From the NCBI GenBank assembly GCA_012557565.1, contig GCA_012557565.1_3926.1: 64,000 nt of DNA; one strand, 5' to 3'. The notes under the pieces were generated by a model, which worked only from the letters and a program-made list of their open reading frames with translations, had not been told where the DNA came from and made no database searches. The stretch's first letter is position 1, and every line of letters begins with the position of its first letter. This document shows, piece after piece, positions 1,809 to 17,612 of the stretch. The DNA comes from a phage. Both the position numbers and the translations under genes were made by a program.

Positions 1809-2930
1809 ATGACTACTAAGACTAAAGCACAAATCGACGCAGAAATCTACGCACTGGTTAAAGAAGGTAAACTTACCAAAACTGCAATTGCTCTGAAGTA
1901 CAATACTTCAACTCGTTCTGTAGGTCGTGCTGTAGAGCGTCATGAAGCAACTTTACTGACAGGGAAAACCAAAGAAAAACCTGCGAGGACTCTGAAAGAT
2001 ATTGCAAAGGGTGCTAAGAAAGCTAAAGCAACTAAAAAGGTAGCTACTCAGAAACCTGTTGCAAAAGCTGTTAAAGAAGCAGTCAAAGCAGAACCTGTAA
2101 ATGCTCTGCACGAAGCAATGCAGAATAATAGTCAGATTGAATACATGATTACTGGTGACTCGGTTATCATGACTTTCGGTGCAGAGTCAGAGATTGTTGA
2201 ATCAACTCACCCTAACTACACTGAAATTGTTATGGCTGTTGTATCAGGTGAGTACAAGAAAGCCTTTGAACTGATGAATATTCGCAAATCCATTGAGAAC
2301 TTTACTCAGGGTGCTGTGACCATTAAAGGTGATAACCTGTACTACGGTGCTGTTCAAATGCGTTCAACTCTGGTAGACCGTATTCTGGACATGATGAAGA
2401 AAGGTGATGAAGGCTTTACCCGTCTGATTGCATTCTTCGAAAAACTGATGGAAAACCCATCAAAAGACTCTGTAGAACAACTTTGGGGCTTTGTGTCACA
2501 CCTTGATGTTGAAATCGATGAAGAAGGTTATATCATCGGTTGGAAGAAAGTCACAACTCGTAGTGGTAAACTGTTTGACTCTCGTACCTGCAAAGTTCCA
2601 AACGATTTGGGTAACATTGTTGAGATGCCACGTTGGATGGTTGATAATAACCGTCATGTAACATGCTCTCAGGGTCTGCATGTTGGGGCTTGGGACTATG
2701 TAACTAGCTTCTCTGGTGACACTATCCTGAAAGTTCGTGTTCATCCTCGTGATGTTGTTTCAGTACCAACTGACTACAACGATATGAAAATGCGAGCTTC
2801 ACGTTATGAAGTTGCAGCGATTGTGAATAGTCGCCGTGAAGTCATCAAAGAGTGGGATGGTTCAGAAGCACTTCATGTAGTTGTAGGAACTGCTGGTGAA
2901 CTGATTTCTCAGCGTAAACGTGAAGTATAA
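1809..2930 (+). CDS. hypothetical protein with Lys/Ala-rich segment near N-terminus
   Basis: 373-aa ORF; purine-rich SD (AAGAGAGA) upstream of ATG; terminator immediately downstream. Confidence 0.55.
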   Translation: MTTKTKAQIDAEIYALVKEGKLTKTAIALKYNTSTRSVGRAVERHEATLLTGKTKEKPARTLKDIAKGAKKAKATKKVATQKPVAKAVKEAVKAEPVNALHEAMQNNSQIEYMITGDSVIMTFGAESEIVESTHPNYTEIVMAVVSGEYKKAFELMNIRKSIENFTQGAVTIKGDNLYYGAVQMRSTLVDRILDMMKKGDEGFTRLIAFFEKLMENPSKDSVEQLWGFVSHLDVEIDEEGYIIGWKKVTTRSGKLFDSRTCKVPNDLGNIVEMPRWMVDNNRHVTCSQGLHVGAWDYVTSFSGDTILKVRVHPRDVVSVPTDYNDMKMRASRYEVAAIVNSRREVIKEWDGSEALHVVVGTAGELISQRKREV

Positions 2931-2947
2931 TAAGTAAATTCCTAAAG

Positions 2948-2969
2948 GGCTGCTTCGGCAGCCTTTTTT
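2948..2969 (+). terminator. rho-independent terminator
   Basis: GGCTGC-TTCG-GCAGCC hairpin followed by TTTTTT. Confidence 0.6.
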
Positions 2970-2971
2970 AT

Positions 2972-2999
2972 TTGAAAAATGTGCAGGATGATGTATAAT
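2972..2999 (+). promoter_or_regulatory. sigma70-like promoter
   Basis: TTGAAA (2972-2977), 16-nt spacer containing TGTGCAGG, TATAAT (2994-2999); precedes CDS 3007. Confidence 0.5.
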
Positions 3000-3006
3000 T
3001 GTCTGC

Positions 3007-3579
3007 ATGTTTAACAAAATAGGAGTGCAAATGAAGAAATTTGTTTTAGGTTTGTGCTTATTCTTTACAGCACATTTAGCTACAGCATCTGACTGTCCAG
3101 AACTTACAATCAGTCAGAAAGTAAATATGTTAAAAGCATATAACTATGGCGAAGGACAGATGGGAAAAGGTTGGGGAATACCTTTAGCAGCTATAGCCTT
3201 ACAAGAGTCACAATTAGGTGTCATGTTAGAAAATAAAAGGACTCATGATTATGGTGTTTTCCAGAATCACTTGAAGACTGTTGTAAAGCGTAACAAAATA
3301 TCTCCAAAGGTTGCTAAGAAGAAGTTGGTAAGTGACTTCCATTACTCAGCAAAAGAGGCTCATAAAGAGTTGCTATTCTGGACAAAGGTTCACGGTAACC
3401 CAGATGGAAAGTACTCTATGAAGCGTGTCCTAGCTTCTTATAATGCTGGTTACAAATATAAGATTCCAAAGGCTAGACAATATTCTCAAGATGTGTACAA
3501 TAACATGAAATTGCTTGCTCAATGTGAGTTTGCAACAAACATTAAAAAGGTAAAATATGAGCGAATCAAAACAATTTGA
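3007..3579 (+). CDS. secreted lytic transglycosylase-like protein (SLT-like)
   Basis: N-terminal signal-peptide-like segment MKKFVLGLCLFFTAHLATA; segment AIALQESQLG...YGVFQ resembles the SLT-domain catalytic Glu-Ser region. Confidence 0.45.
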   Translation: MFNKIGVQMKKFVLGLCLFFTAHLATASDCPELTISQKVNMLKAYNYGEGQMGKGWGIPLAAIALQESQLGVMLENKRTHDYGVFQNHLKTVVKRNKISPKVAKKKLVSDFHYSAKEAHKELLFWTKVHGNPDGKYSMKRVLASYNAGYKYKIPKARQYSQDVYNNMKLLAQCEFATNIKKVKYERIKTI

Positions 3580-4252
3580 TACGGTTCTGTGTCATGCTTA
3601 TGATATCAAACCACTTGATTTAGATATCAGTTCTGCAAGCTGGTCAGACGTTGCTAAAGCTGACTTTGCAGATACAGCAAGATGTGTTGCATGTAGCTTT
3701 GAAGACTTTCATTCAACAAAGACACAGATTCCTTGTCAAGATTTGCTAACAGGTAAGACTGTATATGTGGGTCGTAATAGTCTTATCTTGGTTGCAAAGA
3801 ACTTGGAAGAAAAACGTAAAATGGTCTTAGCAGATATTGATGGTGTTCTTACAAGTTTTGATAAGAAACTTAATGCAACTCTGTTAGATGATGGTACTTA
3901 CTCACAGTACACTAACTTGGTGGACTCTCGCAGAGCTAAACCAACTTATGTTTTTAACATCCTGTGTGGGATATCACAAAATGCTGATATAGGATTCTTA
4001 ACTGCTCGTGGTGAATCACAGAGAGTGGTCACTCATCTCTTCCTGAATGAAAATGTAGACAGTGATTTCTTACTGTTTATGCGTGGATTTGGTGACAATG
4101 AGATTAGTGCAGAAAGTTTGAAAGTTCGTATGCTTCAGTCTTGCATTCTACCTTACTATGATGTAGTATGCTTTATAGAAGATACAGTAAAGAACGTGGC
4201 AAAGGTCGAAAGAATCCTTCCACACATTAAAACAATGTTAGTTAAAAACTGA
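3557..4252 (+). CDS. HAD-superfamily phosphatase (possible nucleotidase)
   Basis: HAD motif I-like LADIDGVLT (DxDG), motif II-like FLTARG, motif IV-like GFGDNE; 231 aa. Confidence 0.5.
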   Translation: MSESKQFDTVLCHAYDIKPLDLDISSASWSDVAKADFADTARCVACSFEDFHSTKTQIPCQDLLTGKTVYVGRNSLILVAKNLEEKRKMVLADIDGVLTSFDKKLNATLLDDGTYSQYTNLVDSRRAKPTYVFNILCGISQNADIGFLTARGESQRVVTHLFLNENVDSDFLLFMRGFGDNEISAESLKVRMLQSCILPYYDVVCFIEDTVKNVAKVERILPHIKTMLVKN

Positions 4253-4263
4253 GAGAGAAAACC

Positions 4264-4728
4264 ATGCAAAATATTATAACAGTAGCTATCGATGCAACCG
4301 GAAACAAATCTGAAGTTGTTCGTCGTATCATCAAAGACAACTTTGAAGGTAAAATCTTCCGAGCAGTAAACGTCAAAGCTGACGGAGAGATTCGTGAGTA
4401 TCGTGCTCTGCTGAATGTTTCTAAACACGTTAAAGGTGTTGGTTCTACAACTGCTCACAAAGAAAATCTGATGACCATCTATGATATGGGTATGGCTTCA
4501 GAACTTGGTGCAGCAGGGATTGTAAAACAGGGAGCACCATACCGTTCCTTCAATCTGGAAACTGCTCTTATGCTTTCCTTCACAAGTGGTGAAAAGACTA
4601 CCACTTATCTGTTTACTGATGCTGCAACGGTATCAGCTATCAAGGACAGCACCATTAAATCTGGGGTTAACGCTGCTGCTAAAGCCTCAACAATGGCTGC
4701 AAATGTGCTTGCTAAAGTTCTAGGTTAA
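4264..4728 (+). CDS. hypothetical protein
   Basis: 154-aa ORF with SD-like GAGAGA upstream; followed by terminator. Confidence 0.55.
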   Translation: MQNIITVAIDATGNKSEVVRRIIKDNFEGKIFRAVNVKADGEIREYRALLNVSKHVKGVGSTTAHKENLMTIYDMGMASELGAAGIVKQGAPYRSFNLETALMLSFTSGEKTTTYLFTDAATVSAIKDSTIKSGVNAAAKASTMAANVLAKVLG

Positions 4729-4740
4729 GGTTAATATAGA

Positions 4741-4761
4741 GGCTCCTTCGGGAGCCTTTTT
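4741..4761 (+). terminator. rho-independent terminator
   Basis: GGCTCC-TTCG-GGAGCC hairpin followed by TTTTT. Confidence 0.6.
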
Positions 4762-4780
4762 CATTTATAGGAGAAGTTAA

Positions 4781-5128
4781 ATGACATTTAAAGAATTTTG
4801 TCAAGCAGCTTTTGTAATCATTTTTCTGTTAGGTGTAGGTGCTTGGGGCGGTTACACTTACAAGACTAGCCAAGTTAACGAGAAAGAGTTGACTAATCAG
4901 AAGCTTGTTAGTGTTGCTAAGGATGCTTACCAAGAAGGTTTAGCAAATCTTAGTGCTAATTATAAAAATGATTTGAAAGATGTGCTTGCTAAAAACAAAC
5001 ACACAAAAGAGGTATTGACCTATGAAAAAACTAAGACAGAGTTTTATAATATTTGTGCTACTGAGCCTTATATCGGGGTGTTCAACCAACAAAGTGAACA
5101 GTACCTTCAAAAACTCCCAAGTAAGTGA
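4781..5128 (+). CDS. i-spanin-like protein (N-terminal TM helix plus charged coiled-coil-like domain)
   Basis: N-terminal hydrophobic helix AAFVIIFLLGVGAWGG then K/E-rich region; SD AGGAG upstream; 3' end overlapped by a lipoprotein ORF in another frame. Confidence 0.45.
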   Translation: MTFKEFCQAAFVIIFLLGVGAWGGYTYKTSQVNEKELTNQKLVSVAKDAYQEGLANLSANYKNDLKDVLAKNKHTKEVLTYEKTKTEFYNICATEPYIGVFNQQSEQYLQKLPSK

Positions 5129-5291
5129 GAGTGACAAGTACACTCAGGAAGAGACTAGGTACACTGTCAAGGGTACTAAGGGTGAAGACCTTGCTAGTGC
5201 TATGGAGTTTTATCGTGATGGATTCTATGAATGTGCTATCAAGGCAAACAATTTGATTGATATGATTTTGTTAGGGAATAAACAGCAATGA
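5022..5291 (+). CDS. o-spanin-like outer-membrane lipoprotein
   Basis: Signal peptide with lipobox LISGC (MKKLRQSFIIFVLLSLISGC); start overlaps the 3' end of the i-spanin-like ORF. Confidence 0.45.
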   Translation: MKKLRQSFIIFVLLSLISGCSTNKVNSTFKNSQVSESDKYTQEETRYTVKGTKGEDLASAMEFYRDGFYECAIKANNLIDMILLGNKQQ

Positions 5292-5557
5292 CAGAAAAGA
5301 GTGAAACGTTTTATGTAGAAGGTTACTTACTTCTTCCAAGACCAAGTAACACTTATATGAGAATTGATTTCTTACCAACTATCATGGATGATGTAATGTG
5401 TCACCTGTTTATTCAGGGTATTACAGCACAGTTAAAACATGTTGGAAGAGAATGTAAGATTCGTGTTGACAATCATCCTGAAATCAACGAGAATCACTAC
5501 ATCTGGTTCGGTGAAAACTCCAAAGAAATCTACGCAACGTTAAAAACGAGGAAATGA
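5288..5557 (+). CDS. hypothetical protein
   Basis: 89-aa ORF; ATGA overlap with following small ORF. Confidence 0.45.
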   Translation: MTEKSETFYVEGYLLLPRPSNTYMRIDFLPTIMDDVMCHLFIQGITAQLKHVGRECKIRVDNHPEINENHYIWFGENSKEIYATLKTRK

Positions 5558-5724
5558 TTGTGGACAAACAGAAGCTTCTTAACTTGATTGAAGAGTATGG
5601 TGATACCCGTTTTAATATTGGTATTGCACAGGTTAAAGATTCAATTGAAAACTCTACCTTATGGGAAGAAGCTTCAGAAGCAATCTTACAACAAATTAAA
5701 GAGGTAATCTATAATGGAACTTAA
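5554..5724 (+). CDS. hypothetical small protein (56 aa, not in ORF track)
   Basis: ATG overlapping upstream stop (ATGA); SD GAGGA upstream; reads MIVDKQKLLNLIEEYGDTRF...; hand-translated. Confidence 0.35.
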   Translation: MIVDKQKLLNLIEEYGDTRFNIGIAQVKDSIENSTLWEEASEAILQQIKEVIYNGT

Positions 5725-6040
5725 TGGTAAAACCATTGTAGCCGTCTTCTCAGATAATGAGAAAGATATTGGTGTAGCCCAAGTGACATATGGCAATGGT
5801 GAGTTTCTATATGGTGTAATCGCCATGATTGGTACAAGAGGCGATACCCCAACATTCCAAGATTGTGTACATAAGCTCGAAGAGTCTGTTAGAAATCATT
5901 GGTGTCTCGTTTGGATGAACGATAATGATATCAAAGAGCGTTACGCTAAAATTGGTATTGACATTGTTGGTATTGAACATGTAGACTTATATCAACTAAC
6001 TGAAAAGGTAATGTATGAAAGTTCTAATCGTCAGAAATAA
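5714..6040 (+). CDS. hypothetical protein
   Basis: 108-aa ORF in track. Confidence 0.5.
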   Translation: MELNGKTIVAVFSDNEKDIGVAQVTYGNGEFLYGVIAMIGTRGDTPTFQDCVHKLEESVRNHWCLVWMNDNDIKERYAKIGIDIVGIEHVDLYQLTEKVMYESSNRQK

Positions 6041-6236
6041 AAAGACACGGCAAATTATAGCATCTGGTATCTATGTAGGGAGAAGTGAAGTAATCCCGTT
6101 TACCGAGGTTTTCTCACATAAAGAAACCTTCAAATATTATTTGGATGAAGGCTTCTTACGTTCAAACGTTGAAAGTTTTAAACAGACTTTCACCAGTAAT
6201 CGTACAGTCACTCAAGAGGTAATCTTAAATGGCTGA
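6015..6236 (+). CDS. hypothetical protein
   Basis: 73-aa ORF overlapping neighbours at both ends. Confidence 0.4.
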   Translation: MKVLIVRNKKTRQIIASGIYVGRSEVIPFTEVFSHKETFKYYLDEGFLRSNVESFKQTFTSNRTVTQEVILNG

Positions 6237-6429
6237 TTTCTGCAAGAGTTGTTCTATTGAAATGTTTGGACGTGATACAGGAGACTTGAAAGGTCTTATC
6301 ACTGAAGATGATTTCAAAGCTGGTTATGCTATGCCAACACTCTGTGAAGGTTGTGGTGGAATCTGGGTAGACCATGAAGGGCAACGTGTAAAACCTTCTG
6401 AAGATAAAGAATCGTGGGAGGAATGGTAA
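6229..6429 (+). CDS. small zinc-ribbon-like protein
   Basis: CKSC ... CEGC cysteine pairs; 66 aa; immediately upstream of macro-domain ORF. Confidence 0.45.
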   Translation: MADFCKSCSIEMFGRDTGDLKGLITEDDFKAGYAMPTLCEGCGGIWVDHEGQRVKPSEDKESWEEW

Positions 6430-6430
6430 C

Positions 6431-7225
6431 ATGGGTATCGTAAAAATTATTAAAGGTGATATCTTTAAAGACTTTGATAATAAGAAGTTTGATATCATTG
6501 GTCACGGTTGTAACTGCATGAACTTAATGGGTGCAGGTATTGCAGCAACAATTGCTAAACGTTATCCAAAAGCTTATGAGACTGATGCTGAAGTTTATGC
6601 TACAGTTGGTGGTGAAGGTCATAAACCTAAGCATCTTATGCTTGGTAACATCTCTGTAGCACGTTTTAAGCAGGGTCGAATTGCTAACCTTTACACTCAG
6701 GTTATCACTGGTAAAGATGCACGATACAATGCTTTAGAAGCAGCTTTGCAGCGTCTTAATAACTACTGCAAAGTAAACCAGCTTAAGAAAGTTGGACTTC
6801 CTATGATTGGTGCAGGGATTGGTGGTCTTGATAGCATGGCTGTGCTGTCTATCATCAATCAGACCATGAAAGATGTTGACGTTTATATGTATGTCTATGA
6901 AGATAAGATGTACAGTCAGTTGACTAGTCCGGTTACTGGTTGGGAAAACTTTAGTGAACCTCAATACTTTGATGGTGTTGCCGTGGTAGGCAAGGATAAA
7001 GTTACTCTCAAGGTGAAGCGTAATGGTAAGGTACACACCAGTTACCCTCCGGTTGAGAAGTACAATCGAAGTAACGCTCAAGTTACCCACCCGTTACAAG
7101 GCCATTGTCACAGAGCCGTAACATTTGGTGATGATGCAAGTGTGTATATCGGTGCTGCTACAGAAGAGTTTGCAGAGGATTATATCACACATGAGAATGT
7201 TAACTATGTTGAAGCACGTAACTAA
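6431..7225 (+). CDS. macro-domain-like protein (putative ADP-ribose binding/hydrolase) with C-terminal extension
   Basis: N-terminal KGDIF...IIGHGCNCMNLMGAGIAATI and later LPMIGAGIGGL resemble macro-domain Gly-rich motifs; by-eye match only. Confidence 0.45.
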   Translation: MGIVKIIKGDIFKDFDNKKFDIIGHGCNCMNLMGAGIAATIAKRYPKAYETDAEVYATVGGEGHKPKHLMLGNISVARFKQGRIANLYTQVITGKDARYNALEAALQRLNNYCKVNQLKKVGLPMIGAGIGGLDSMAVLSIINQTMKDVDVYMYVYEDKMYSQLTSPVTGWENFSEPQYFDGVAVVGKDKVTLKVKRNGKVHTSYPPVEKYNRSNAQVTHPLQGHCHRAVTFGDDASVYIGAATEEFAEDYITHENVNYVEARN

Positions 7226-7240
7226 TAAGTTACCTAAATA

Positions 7241-7287
7241 GACATAGACAAGCCCTCCAAAGTTTGAGTTTAAAATCTCAGGTAAGG
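7241..7287 (+). terminator. rho-independent terminator (large loop)
   Basis: AGCCCTCC ... GGAGGGCT inverted repeat followed by TTTTT. Confidence 0.45.
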
Positions 7288-7480
7288 AGGGCTTTTTCAT
7301 TTCAAATTTGTGCAGGTGCAATTGCATAGAACTCTGGACAGATTTCTTTAGCTGAACTCCAAAGGGAAAATTCATTTTCAATTTGTGCAGGTCTAGACTC
7401 CAAAGGGCTTTTTCATTTTCAATCTGTGCAGATGCAGTTGGACTCCAAAGGGAAAATTCATTTTCAATTTGTGCAGGTAG
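7281..7480. repeat. four tandem direct repeats of a 36-bp unit (42-45 bp spacing) containing TGTGCAG
   Basis: Units near 7297, 7347, 7389, 7434: CTCCAAAGGG(AAAA/CTTT)TTCATTTTCAATTTGTGCAGG. Confidence 0.7.
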
Positions 7481-17086: not shown

Positions 17087-17318
17087 CTGCTTTCAAGTAA
17101 TAAGCTTCTTGGATGCTGCAAAGGTCTTCGTAACCACCATTCATAAGCCAGTTATAACCTTGTGGCACACCTTTTTCATCACAGAATCCAGTATAGAACA
17201 TTGCTTTATGAATCATGTTAAGTGGTTTGTAAGCAACTTCCACAATATAGAAGGTATTGTCTTTCCAACCACCTTCTGGTGGATGAATACCCTTCACGCC
17301 TCTACTTTCTGGTGTCAT
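17022..17318 (-). CDS. hypothetical protein
   Basis: 98-aa ORF. Confidence 0.45.
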   Translation of the reverse strand: MTPESRGVKGIHPPEGGWKDNTFYIVEVAYKPLNMIHKAMFYTGFCDEKGVPQGYNWLMNGGYEDLCSIQEAYYLKAVAELPEEFQIERDEDWNDEEC

Positions 17319-17332
17319 AAAATTTCCTCAAT

Positions 17333-17352
17333 AAAAGGGGCTGTTACACCCC
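17333..17352 (-). terminator. rho-independent terminator (minus strand)
   Basis: GGGGTGTAACAGCCCC hairpin followed by T-tract on the minus strand. Confidence 0.45.
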
Positions 17353-17359
17353 TTCGAAA

Positions 17360-17542
17360 TTACTCTTTATCTTTCTTAGCAGATTTCTTCTTAGCCGTTG
17401 CTGCAATAGCAAGGTCTACAAGTTGCGCTAAGTCAGCTTTCAGAACCGTTACAGGTTGTTCGTTGTAGAATCCTTTGTCAAGGTATTCTTTGAACTCTTC
17501 TAAGGTTTCAAATCCAAAAGGTTTGATAGGTGTTCTAATCAT
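17360..17542 (-). CDS. hypothetical small Lys-rich protein
   Basis: 60-aa ORF. Confidence 0.4.
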   Translation of the reverse strand: MIRTPIKPFGFETLEEFKEYLDKGFYNEQPVTVLKADLAQLVDLAIAATAKKKSAKKDKE

Positions 17543-17612
17543 TTACCCTCCGAGATATCTTTTAAGATTTTCTGGTTAATCATTTCCGCAATAGCATAGC
17601 GGATACAAACTA

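Follow-up and report, generated by a model that had tools for sequence, protein, structure and literature searches.

A Gln-type macrodomain protein with a lineage-specific C-terminal domain, and its zinc-ribbon neighbour, in a Mooglevirus phage contig

Two adjacent genes at the locus

Two adjacent plus-strand genes were analysed in a stretch of phage DNA of 64 000 nucleotides (contig GCA_012557565.1_3926.1 of the NCBI GenBank assembly GCA_012557565.1), which is referred to in its entirety as the window. The first open reading frame (ORF), at 6229..6429, encodes a small acidic protein of 66 amino acids (aa) with a CxxC...CxxC pattern (its sequence begins MADFCKSC...CEGC), and is called here the zinc-ribbon ORF. 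The second, at 6431..7225, encodes a 264-aa protein related to the phage T4 protein Tk.4, and is called the macro gene. Both ORFs lie as described in an initial annotation, which had been made by eye from the sequence and had regarded the larger product as a macrodomain protein and the smaller as its partner.

The junction between the two genes differs from what had been reported. The zinc-ribbon ORF ends with TAA at 6427-6429, a single C follows at 6430, and the ATG of the macro gene begins at 6431; there is thus a 1-nt spacer rather than an overlap of stop and start codons. The same geometry recurs in five related annotated phages (SUSP1, SFPB, Sf13, HP1 and KMM4). A true ATGnnTGA overlap does occur one junction upstream, where a 73-aa ORF (6015..6236) meets the zinc-ribbon ORF. 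A Shine-Dalgarno-like GGAGG for the macro gene is located within the 3′ end of the zinc-ribbon ORF, at 6417..6421 (+), 9 nt ahead of the macro ATG, and coupling of translation is therefore plausible. The two genes are probably co-transcribed and possibly translationally coupled.

The window belongs to a Mooglevirus (Ounavirinae): the DNA of this region is 97.8% identical to that of the Citrobacter phages Moogle and Mijalis. In Moogle the equivalent of the 264-aa gene is gp116, labelled in RefSeq as 'phosphatase; FelixO1-like, contains Macro domain', and the GenBank or RefSeq records of several relatives carry the label 'macro domain-containing protein'. The macro-domain annotation of the gene is accordingly not new. 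The gene is of a known kind, and its orphan C-terminal domain is the only new part.

Fold and conservation of the macrodomain

The macrodomain comprises residues 1-165 of the 264-aa protein (6431..6925, plus strand). Its characteristic motifs are GDIF at residues 9-12, HGCNCMNLMGAGIA at residues 25-38 and IGAGIGGL at residues 126-133. The Gly-rich, macro-like motifs on which the initial annotation relied are thus present, and three lines of evidence indicate that they do not arise by chance. Pfam Macro (PF01661) matches residues 25-141 with an E value of 7.3e-8 and a score of 32.8 bits, above the gathering threshold of 22, and the match covers profile positions 2-117 of 118; PHROG 335 matches the protein with an E value of 1.8e-106; and a set of residues is invariant across 31 homologues (H25, N28, G36, N86, T89, Q90, P124, G127 and G129). 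Conservation among the homologues extends to the Gly-rich loops GAGIA (34-38) and GAGIGG (127-132).

The DarG profiles of PADLOC and NCBIfam align to residues 5-163 at approximately 1e-15, and in profile-sequence searches of the Protein Data Bank (PDB) the best matches were TARG1 (E 1.8e-17) and Poa1p (E 2.3e-14). An AlphaFold2 model of the protein, calculated from the alignment of the 31 homologues, has a predicted local distance difference test score (pLDDT) of 91.3 and a predicted template modelling score (pTM) of 0.89, and the predicted fold of the N-terminal domain is the three-layer alpha/beta/alpha macro fold. On the basis of the profile matches and this model, the N-terminal domain is placed in the ALC1/TARG1-like class. 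By sequence profile and predicted fold, therefore, the 264-aa protein is a genuine macrodomain protein, and the assignment first made by eye is upheld.

The macro domain is basic, with an isoelectric point (pI) of 9.15. A tblastn search returned 2,678 phage records with relatives, and tk.4 of the T-even phages is among these relatives. Macrodomains are very common in phages, and were found in 41% of myoviruses in the survey of Iyer et al.

Active site and the Gln-type subfamily

The window protein is 40% identical to T4 Tk.4 over 135 aa (E 8e-20), and the two proteins have the same HGCNC, NLYTQ and P-x-IGAGIG motifs. From these sequence comparisons, residues 1-165 are assigned to the same macrodomain subfamily as Tk.4 (AdfM), a Gln-type subfamily with the pattern HxCN...YTQ. 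Alignment to human TARG1 (OARD1) reveals that the K84/D125 dyad of that enzyme is replaced, with Gln90 at the position of the catalytic Lys84 and Gly131 at that of Asp125. Gln90 likewise occupies the position of the catalytic Lys80 of DarG.

Members of the same subfamily were also recovered from bacteria. A scan of bacterial genomes yielded 80 loci, mostly in Rhodobacteraceae (Ruegeria, Roseovarius), Hyphomicrobiaceae and Planctomycetes, and also in Nitrospirales and Kingella; no such stand-alone macrodomain was found in the Enterobacteriaceae genomes included in that scan. The bacterial homologues consist of a macrodomain alone, at about 150 aa; they display the motifs HGCNC and N-A-Y-T-Q and, after the Gln, a longer loop like that of SCO6735 of Streptomyces coelicolor. 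The equivalents of Q90 and N28 are invariant in all 71 of the bacterial proteins recovered with the HGCNC pattern (71/71). The possibility that these proteins are DarT-linked antitoxins was considered and rejected: at the 80 loci the neighbourhoods are of housekeeping type, there is no conserved toxin neighbour, and the proteins have no C-terminal domain.

When one bacterial family member was aligned to PDB chains, its YTQ corresponded to IGQ of SCO6735 and of Bt_1257 from Bacteroides and to PTK of DarG, and its H-G-C-N corresponded to H24-V25-C26-N27 of SCO6735 (alignment with 5E3B and 2FG1). The equivalence of Q90 and N28 of the window protein to Q85 and N27 of SCO6735 is drawn from this alignment together with the structural alignment in the SCO6735 paper.

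In Salmonella phage SB18 (Kolesnikvirus; locus coordinates 2432-3214), a protein with the macro domain and the C-terminal domain has QGCNC in place of HGCNC, with the Asn and the NLYTQ motif retained. The His of the motif is, therefore, not universally required.

The macro fold, the family membership, the active-site residues, the distribution and the evolutionary pattern of the protein are established in this analysis.

Probable function of the macrodomain

The initial annotation had suggested that the protein counters immunity based on ADP-ribosylation. This suggestion now has an experimental footing in the related T4 protein, with which the window protein shares its active-site motifs. We consider the most likely function to be the removal from phage DNA of the ADP-ribose placed there by DarT2, and thereby the countering of DarTG2, and assign to this reading a probability of roughly 0.58. 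The macrodomain would bind ADP-ribose linked by host DarT2 to thymidines of single-stranded phage DNA and would hydrolyse the ribose-base bond, releasing free ADP-ribose, restoring replicable DNA and neutralizing a DarTG2-type defence. Catalysis may proceed without a lysine, by the mechanism proposed for SCO6735: Gln90, steadied by Asn28, would orient the distal ribose so that an activated water can attack it.

Three bodies of published work, taken together, make DNA de-ADP-ribosylation the best-supported function. The first concerns T4. In a preprint of 2025, the tk.4 gene was the single significant gene depleted in a HIDEN-SEQ experiment on a DarTG2 host, and was named adfM, for anti-DarT factor Macrodomain; a clean knockout of tk.4 renders T4 sensitive to DarTG2 (10.1101/2025.11.20.689424). 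Earlier work had established that T4 lacking both adfA and adfN stays resistant to DarTG2, and a further factor was therefore predicted, with which the tk.4 finding is consistent. As noted in that work, DarTG2 requires conditions of slow growth.

The second is the chemistry of SCO6735. This enzyme has neither of the two catalytic residues of TARG1, and its Gln85 lies at the position of DarG K80 and TARG1 K84. The substitutions Q85A, Q85E and N27S each inactivate it, so that both Gln85 and Asn27 are essential. It cleaves the thymidine-ADP-ribose made by DarT faster than do DarG and TARG1, and it protects cells from DarT toxicity; a water-mediated mechanism has been proposed. An 'interaction-inhibition' of DarT is shared by SCO6735, DarG and TARG1. 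Since SCO6735 acts with Gln85, the replacement of the catalytic Lys by Gln is no obstacle to hydrolysis of thymidine-ADP-ribose on DNA. The third is gp104 of phage PhiKZ, also named AdfM, a DarG-type macrodomain that strips DarT2 marks (ADP-ribose) from DNA in vitro and that the phage requires on hosts carrying DarTG2 (Cell Rep 2026, PMC13309987). The strategy of DNA de-ADP-ribosylation thus exists in phages, because gp104 carries it out in vitro. It is from these precedents that we infer the substrate (thymidine-ADP-ribose on DNA) and the anti-DarTG2 role.

Several observations weigh against this interpretation. The evidence on Tk.4 is genetic only, and the removal of ADP-ribose from DNA was inferred by its authors, whose own word is 'likely' (10.1101/2025.11.20.689424). 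An identity of 40% to Tk.4 is modest, and macrodomains often change or share substrates. The window protein is not a DarG: it scores 54.9 bits against NCBIfam NF048014, for which the cut-off is 250, and the match is confined to profile positions 2-153 of 338, just as the PADLOC DarG profile is matched at positions 4-147 of 329 only. The interval from Q90 to Y99 is nine positions, as in TARG1 and T4 Tk.4, compared with about 14 in SCO6735 and the bacterial HGCNC homologues. By this alignment the phage proteins are without the 'mobile loop' that is five residues longer in SCO6735 and that the authors of the SCO6735 study tied to its high activity on DNA. SCO6735 and TARG1 are active on protein-linked ADP-ribose as well, and in the view of Iyer et al. 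the main targets of phage macrodomains are small derivatives of ADP-ribose.

In one alternative, the substrate is a small soluble ADP-ribose derivative, such as ADP-ribose-1''-phosphate, O-acetyl-ADP-ribose or a TIR/Thoeris signal (gcADPR or His-ADPR, ADPR being ADP-ribose), and the protein would render a metabolite harmless or silence an immune signal. Yeast Poa1p, an ADP-ribose-1''-phosphate phosphatase, provides the best single-sequence PDB matches and shares with the window protein the H-x-C-N-C-x-x-x-x-G-x-G-I-A motif. That match (E 5.4e-5), however, lies mainly within residues 4-60 of the window protein, its N-terminal 57 residues. At the position where the window protein's family has YTQ, Poa1p has FTS. 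The database label 'phosphatase' stems from Poa1p, and comparison of the sequences lends it no specific support for the window protein. A polynucleotide kinase gene is found approximately 2 kb upstream in five of the five homologous loci that cover that region, and NAD+ salvage genes are annotated in the Moogle lineage, both of which would accord with a soluble substrate; neither the window nor the parts of the Moogle annotation consulted, however, show a source of ADP-ribose-1''-phosphate of the Tpt1/KptA type. His-ADPR is a known immune signal that is bound by a macro domain, and small derivatives are the targets predicted in general terms by the Iyer et al. survey. T4 Tk.4, nevertheless, as the sole subfamily member to have been tested, has a DarTG2 phenotype, and the Asn/Gln active site fits a DNA thymidine-ADP-ribose hydrolase. 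On balance, a small soluble substrate is considered unlikely.

Another alternative is that ADP-ribose is removed from proteins or RNA, the marks being those of host ADP-ribosyltransferase (ART) toxins or defences (mRNA-modifying enzymes of the CmdT type, or ARTs that target proteins) or of phage-encoded ARTs. The protein-linked activity mentioned above is directed at Glu/Asp-linked ADP-ribose and extends to ALC1/TARG1-like macrodomains that include SCO6735 and TARG1; enzymes of the TARG1 class are also reported to reverse ADP-ribosylation of nucleic-acid bases more broadly. The T-even phages that carry Tk.4 themselves encode the ARTs Alt, ModA and ModB, but a scan of window ORFs and the parts of the Moogle annotation consulted revealed no ART. 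The subfamily, moreover, is without an experimental link to protein or RNA targets, and the T4 phenotype points to DarT2. We regard a protein or RNA substrate as distinctly unlikely.

Removal of ADP-ribose from DNA is, then, the reading preferred here. A literature search on DarTG together with Felixounavirus returned no paper, judged by title and abstract, in which that pairing was tested. Placement of the protein in the Gln-type Tk.4 subfamily provides a concrete candidate function for a gene present in hundreds of Ounavirinae genomes. Since phages of this group are used in Salmonella and Escherichia coli phage applications, such a function would help to predict which DarTG2-carrying hosts can be infected. 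The years 2025-2026 brought the first experimental ties of phage macrodomains, two in number, to the evasion of DarTG2.

The C-terminal domain

Residues 166-264, encoded with the stop codon at 6926..7225 (plus strand), form a domain of about 100 aa for which six beta-strands and one helix are confidently predicted. The unassigned C-terminal extension noted in the initial annotation is therefore real, and it has no match in Pfam even at E<=10. Nor were relatives in sequence or fold found outside the Ounavirinae. The architecture of macro domain plus C-terminal domain is present in Mooglevirus, Suspvirus, Felixounavirus and Kolesnikvirus, and in related metagenomic contigs; the bacterial and T-even members of the subfamily do not possess the C-terminal domain.

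It is apparent that this domain diverges more rapidly than the one to which it is attached. In the metagenomic contigs the C-terminal part is 13-25% identical, compared with 41-51% for the macro part, and the C-terminal domain of SB18 cannot be aligned to that of the window by BLAST. Between the window and Felixounavirus the identity is 48% for the C-terminal domain, against 75% for the macro domain and mostly 72-86% for neighbouring genes; two small upstream ORFs are also less similar, at 39% and 61%. Within Mooglevirus and Suspvirus, where substitutions are very few, the ratio of nonsynonymous to synonymous substitution rates (dN/dS) of the C-terminal domain is 0.04-0.40. Positive selection was considered and rejected, in that these values denote purifying selection despite a divergence between genera that is faster than that of the macro domain. 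Because it is conserved under purifying selection, the C-terminal domain is taken to be functional, and by these sequence measures it is lineage-specific and fast-diverging.

Two further proposals were examined and set aside. The idea that the C-terminal domain resembles the part of DarG that binds DarT is unsupported, the DarG profiles matching the macro part only. The His/Cys cluster HPLQGHCHR was considered as a metal site and rejected, as it is not conserved in close homologues.

We infer a role for the C-terminal domain in substrate targeting or in the binding of a host protein. A bolder proposal, which we think quite unlikely, is that it is a previously undescribed fold that provides an AdfM-type enzyme with a second route of neutralization, either by binding and inhibiting DarT2 or by tethering the enzyme to single-stranded DNA or the replisome. 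If this were true, the two-domain logic of DarG2 (a hydrolase joined to a toxin binder) would have been reached convergently by means of an unrelated domain. The C-terminal domain is the only part of the protein able to teach something new, whether about the targeting of the hydrolase or about the gain of a second inhibitory activity.

The zinc-ribbon ORF and the question of a partner

The 66-aa protein belongs to PHROG 2210 (phrog_2210; E 3.4e-39) and has a pI of 4.3. The CxxC...CxxC pattern noted in the initial annotation is well conserved: five homologues, drawn from three phage families and representing Ounavirinae, rV5 and a T5-like phage, show no change at any of the four cysteines (C5, C8, C39 and C42). 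The match to Pfam Zn_ribbon_TFIIB is below threshold (15.1 bits, with a cut-off of 22) and covers 11 residues, and no significant match was obtained in PADLOC, NCBIfam or PDB sequence searches. Homologues were found in 836 phage records.

In Mooglevirus, Suspvirus and Felixounavirus the zinc-ribbon ORF consistently precedes the macro gene as its immediate neighbour. Elsewhere each gene occurs without the other. The rV5 homologue (ORF 26, locus coordinates 3001-3201) stands alone, being followed by a terminator and having no macro gene at a distance of 3 kb or less, and that of the T5-like Yersinia phage phiR2-01 (locus coordinates 2501-2701) is situated between tRNA genes. These rV5 and T5-like homologues are 58-65% identical to the window protein and retain all four cysteines. 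Judged by this distribution, the zinc-ribbon protein is a small protein widely shared among phages. Conversely, genes for the macro domain plus C-terminal domain are preceded instead by an HNH gene (locus L004), by a 103-aa ORF without paired cysteines (locus L007) or by a 42-aa ORF (Kolesnikvirus).

A distant homologue of the macro domain plus C-terminal domain (locus L009; 35% identity) has directly upstream an unrelated 63-aa CPKC...CNEC ORF (3810-4001), the end of which overlaps the macro start. This pairing may be a coincidence or may reflect a recurrent association with small zinc proteins.

The histories of the two genes also differ within Mooglevirus. The zinc-ribbon allele of the window is 94% identical in amino acid sequence to that of Felixounavirus (UAB_Phi87) and 72-73% identical to those of SUSP1, SFPB, Sf13, HP1, KMM4 and Henu12, with synonymous divergence (dS) of 0.6-0.8. 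The macro domain and the C-terminal domain of these same six phages are each 95-99% identical to those of the window. Since the allele histories differ, a recombination breakpoint is placed between the two genes, at or near the 1-nt spacer.

The description of the zinc-ribbon protein as a functional partner is thus not supported: comparison of the loci supports nothing beyond a conserved adjacency in part of the Ounavirinae, and the zinc-ribbon protein would act independently of the macro protein. That the two form an obligate two-component module, with the zinc ribbon, for example, targeting or regulating the hydrolase, is very unlikely. In favour of such a module, every Mooglevirus, Suspvirus and Felixounavirus locus examined has the two genes side by side in one orientation, with a 1-nt spacer and the Shine-Dalgarno sequence of the macro gene inside the zinc-ribbon ORF, and an unrelated CxxC...CxxC ORF occurs at L009; against it, each gene is found without the other (rV5 and the T5-like tRNA clusters; the HNH, non-Cys and 42-aa ORFs), T4 Tk.4 works without a zinc-ribbon protein, and the breakpoint separates the two genes in the window.

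Gene neighbourhood

The two genes lie at the end of a same-strand block with the order rIIB, phrog_600, polynucleotide kinase, phrog_2267, i-spanin and o-spanin, four small ORFs, the zinc-ribbon ORF, the macro gene and a hairpin. No darT toxin was found next to the macro gene, the neighbours being small phage ORFs with zero DarT-related matches in Pfam or PHROG. A scan for sigma-70 promoters around the locus gave 17 candidates, compared with 11.4 +/- 3.4 in shuffled sequences; this is no clear excess, and none was assigned.

The terminator-like hairpin (AAGCCCUCC...GGAGGGCUU followed by a U run) is at 7250..7294 (+), 25 nt past the macro stop codon. Its predicted RNA fold has an energy of -21.4 kcal/mol (z -3.8), none of 200 shuffled sequences folds as well, and it corresponds to the inverted repeat I1. 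Its long loop explains why it escaped a simple scan for terminators. The transcription unit probably ends at this hairpin. The i-spanin and o-spanin (Rz-like) genes, at 4781-5291 on the same strand, are enclosed by a terminator-like site at 4738-4759 on one side and the hairpin on the other; they may be transcribed as one unit together with the zinc-ribbon ORF and the macro gene, an arrangement that fits poorly with the label 'early region' used in the initial annotation.

Just downstream of the hairpin, at 7275-7478, there are four copies of a direct repeat, each about 43 nt long and with TTCATTTTCAATTTGTGCAGGT at its end. The 22-nt core of these repeats has four matches, compared with none expected, and is absent from the rest of the window; the repeats could be promoters or regulatory repeats. 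Farther along the window, a cluster of 25 tRNA genes is located on the plus strand at 25939-31167, and a 471-aa ORF just upstream of it (24358-25773) matches Pfam DUF2828 (E 1e-26) and DUF7788 (E 6e-44).

In Moogle, in regions outside the window (3197-6412 and 17098-17598 of that genome), genes are annotated for nicotinamide phosphoribosyltransferase, ribose-phosphate pyrophosphokinase and 'NAD synthetase'. As annotated, this NAD+ salvage set suggests that the lineage also counters NAD+-depleting defences.

Comparison with known systems

Among the closest characterized relatives, T4 Tk.4 has the same short loop after the Gln and, like the window protein, is encoded among small non-structural ORFs. 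Tk.4, however, is a stand-alone protein of 155 aa, whereas the window protein, with its 264 aa, carries the additional domain of about 100 aa and is preceded by the conserved zinc-ribbon gene. Of the two, only T4 Tk.4 has a demonstrated anti-DarTG2 phenotype.

SCO6735 and Bt_1257 (PDB 5E3B and 2FG1/2AFC) resemble the window protein in having Gln at the position of the catalytic Lys, together with the conserved Asn. They differ in being cellular proteins, in their mobile loop, which is five residues longer, in an identity of only about 23%, and in having no C-terminal domain. The similarity to yeast Poa1p is in the H-x-C-N-C motif.

DarG2 (PDB 5M3I and 5M3E) has Lys80 where the window protein has Gln90, and the C-terminal domains of the two proteins are unrelated. 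PhiKZ gp104, finally, is like the window protein a phage-encoded macrodomain, and it is one that counters DarTG2. It is, however, of the DarG type, with N23/K78 and an FPTK motif, and is 23% identical to the window protein. On these sequence features, gp104 represents an independent acquisition from another branch of the macrodomain class.

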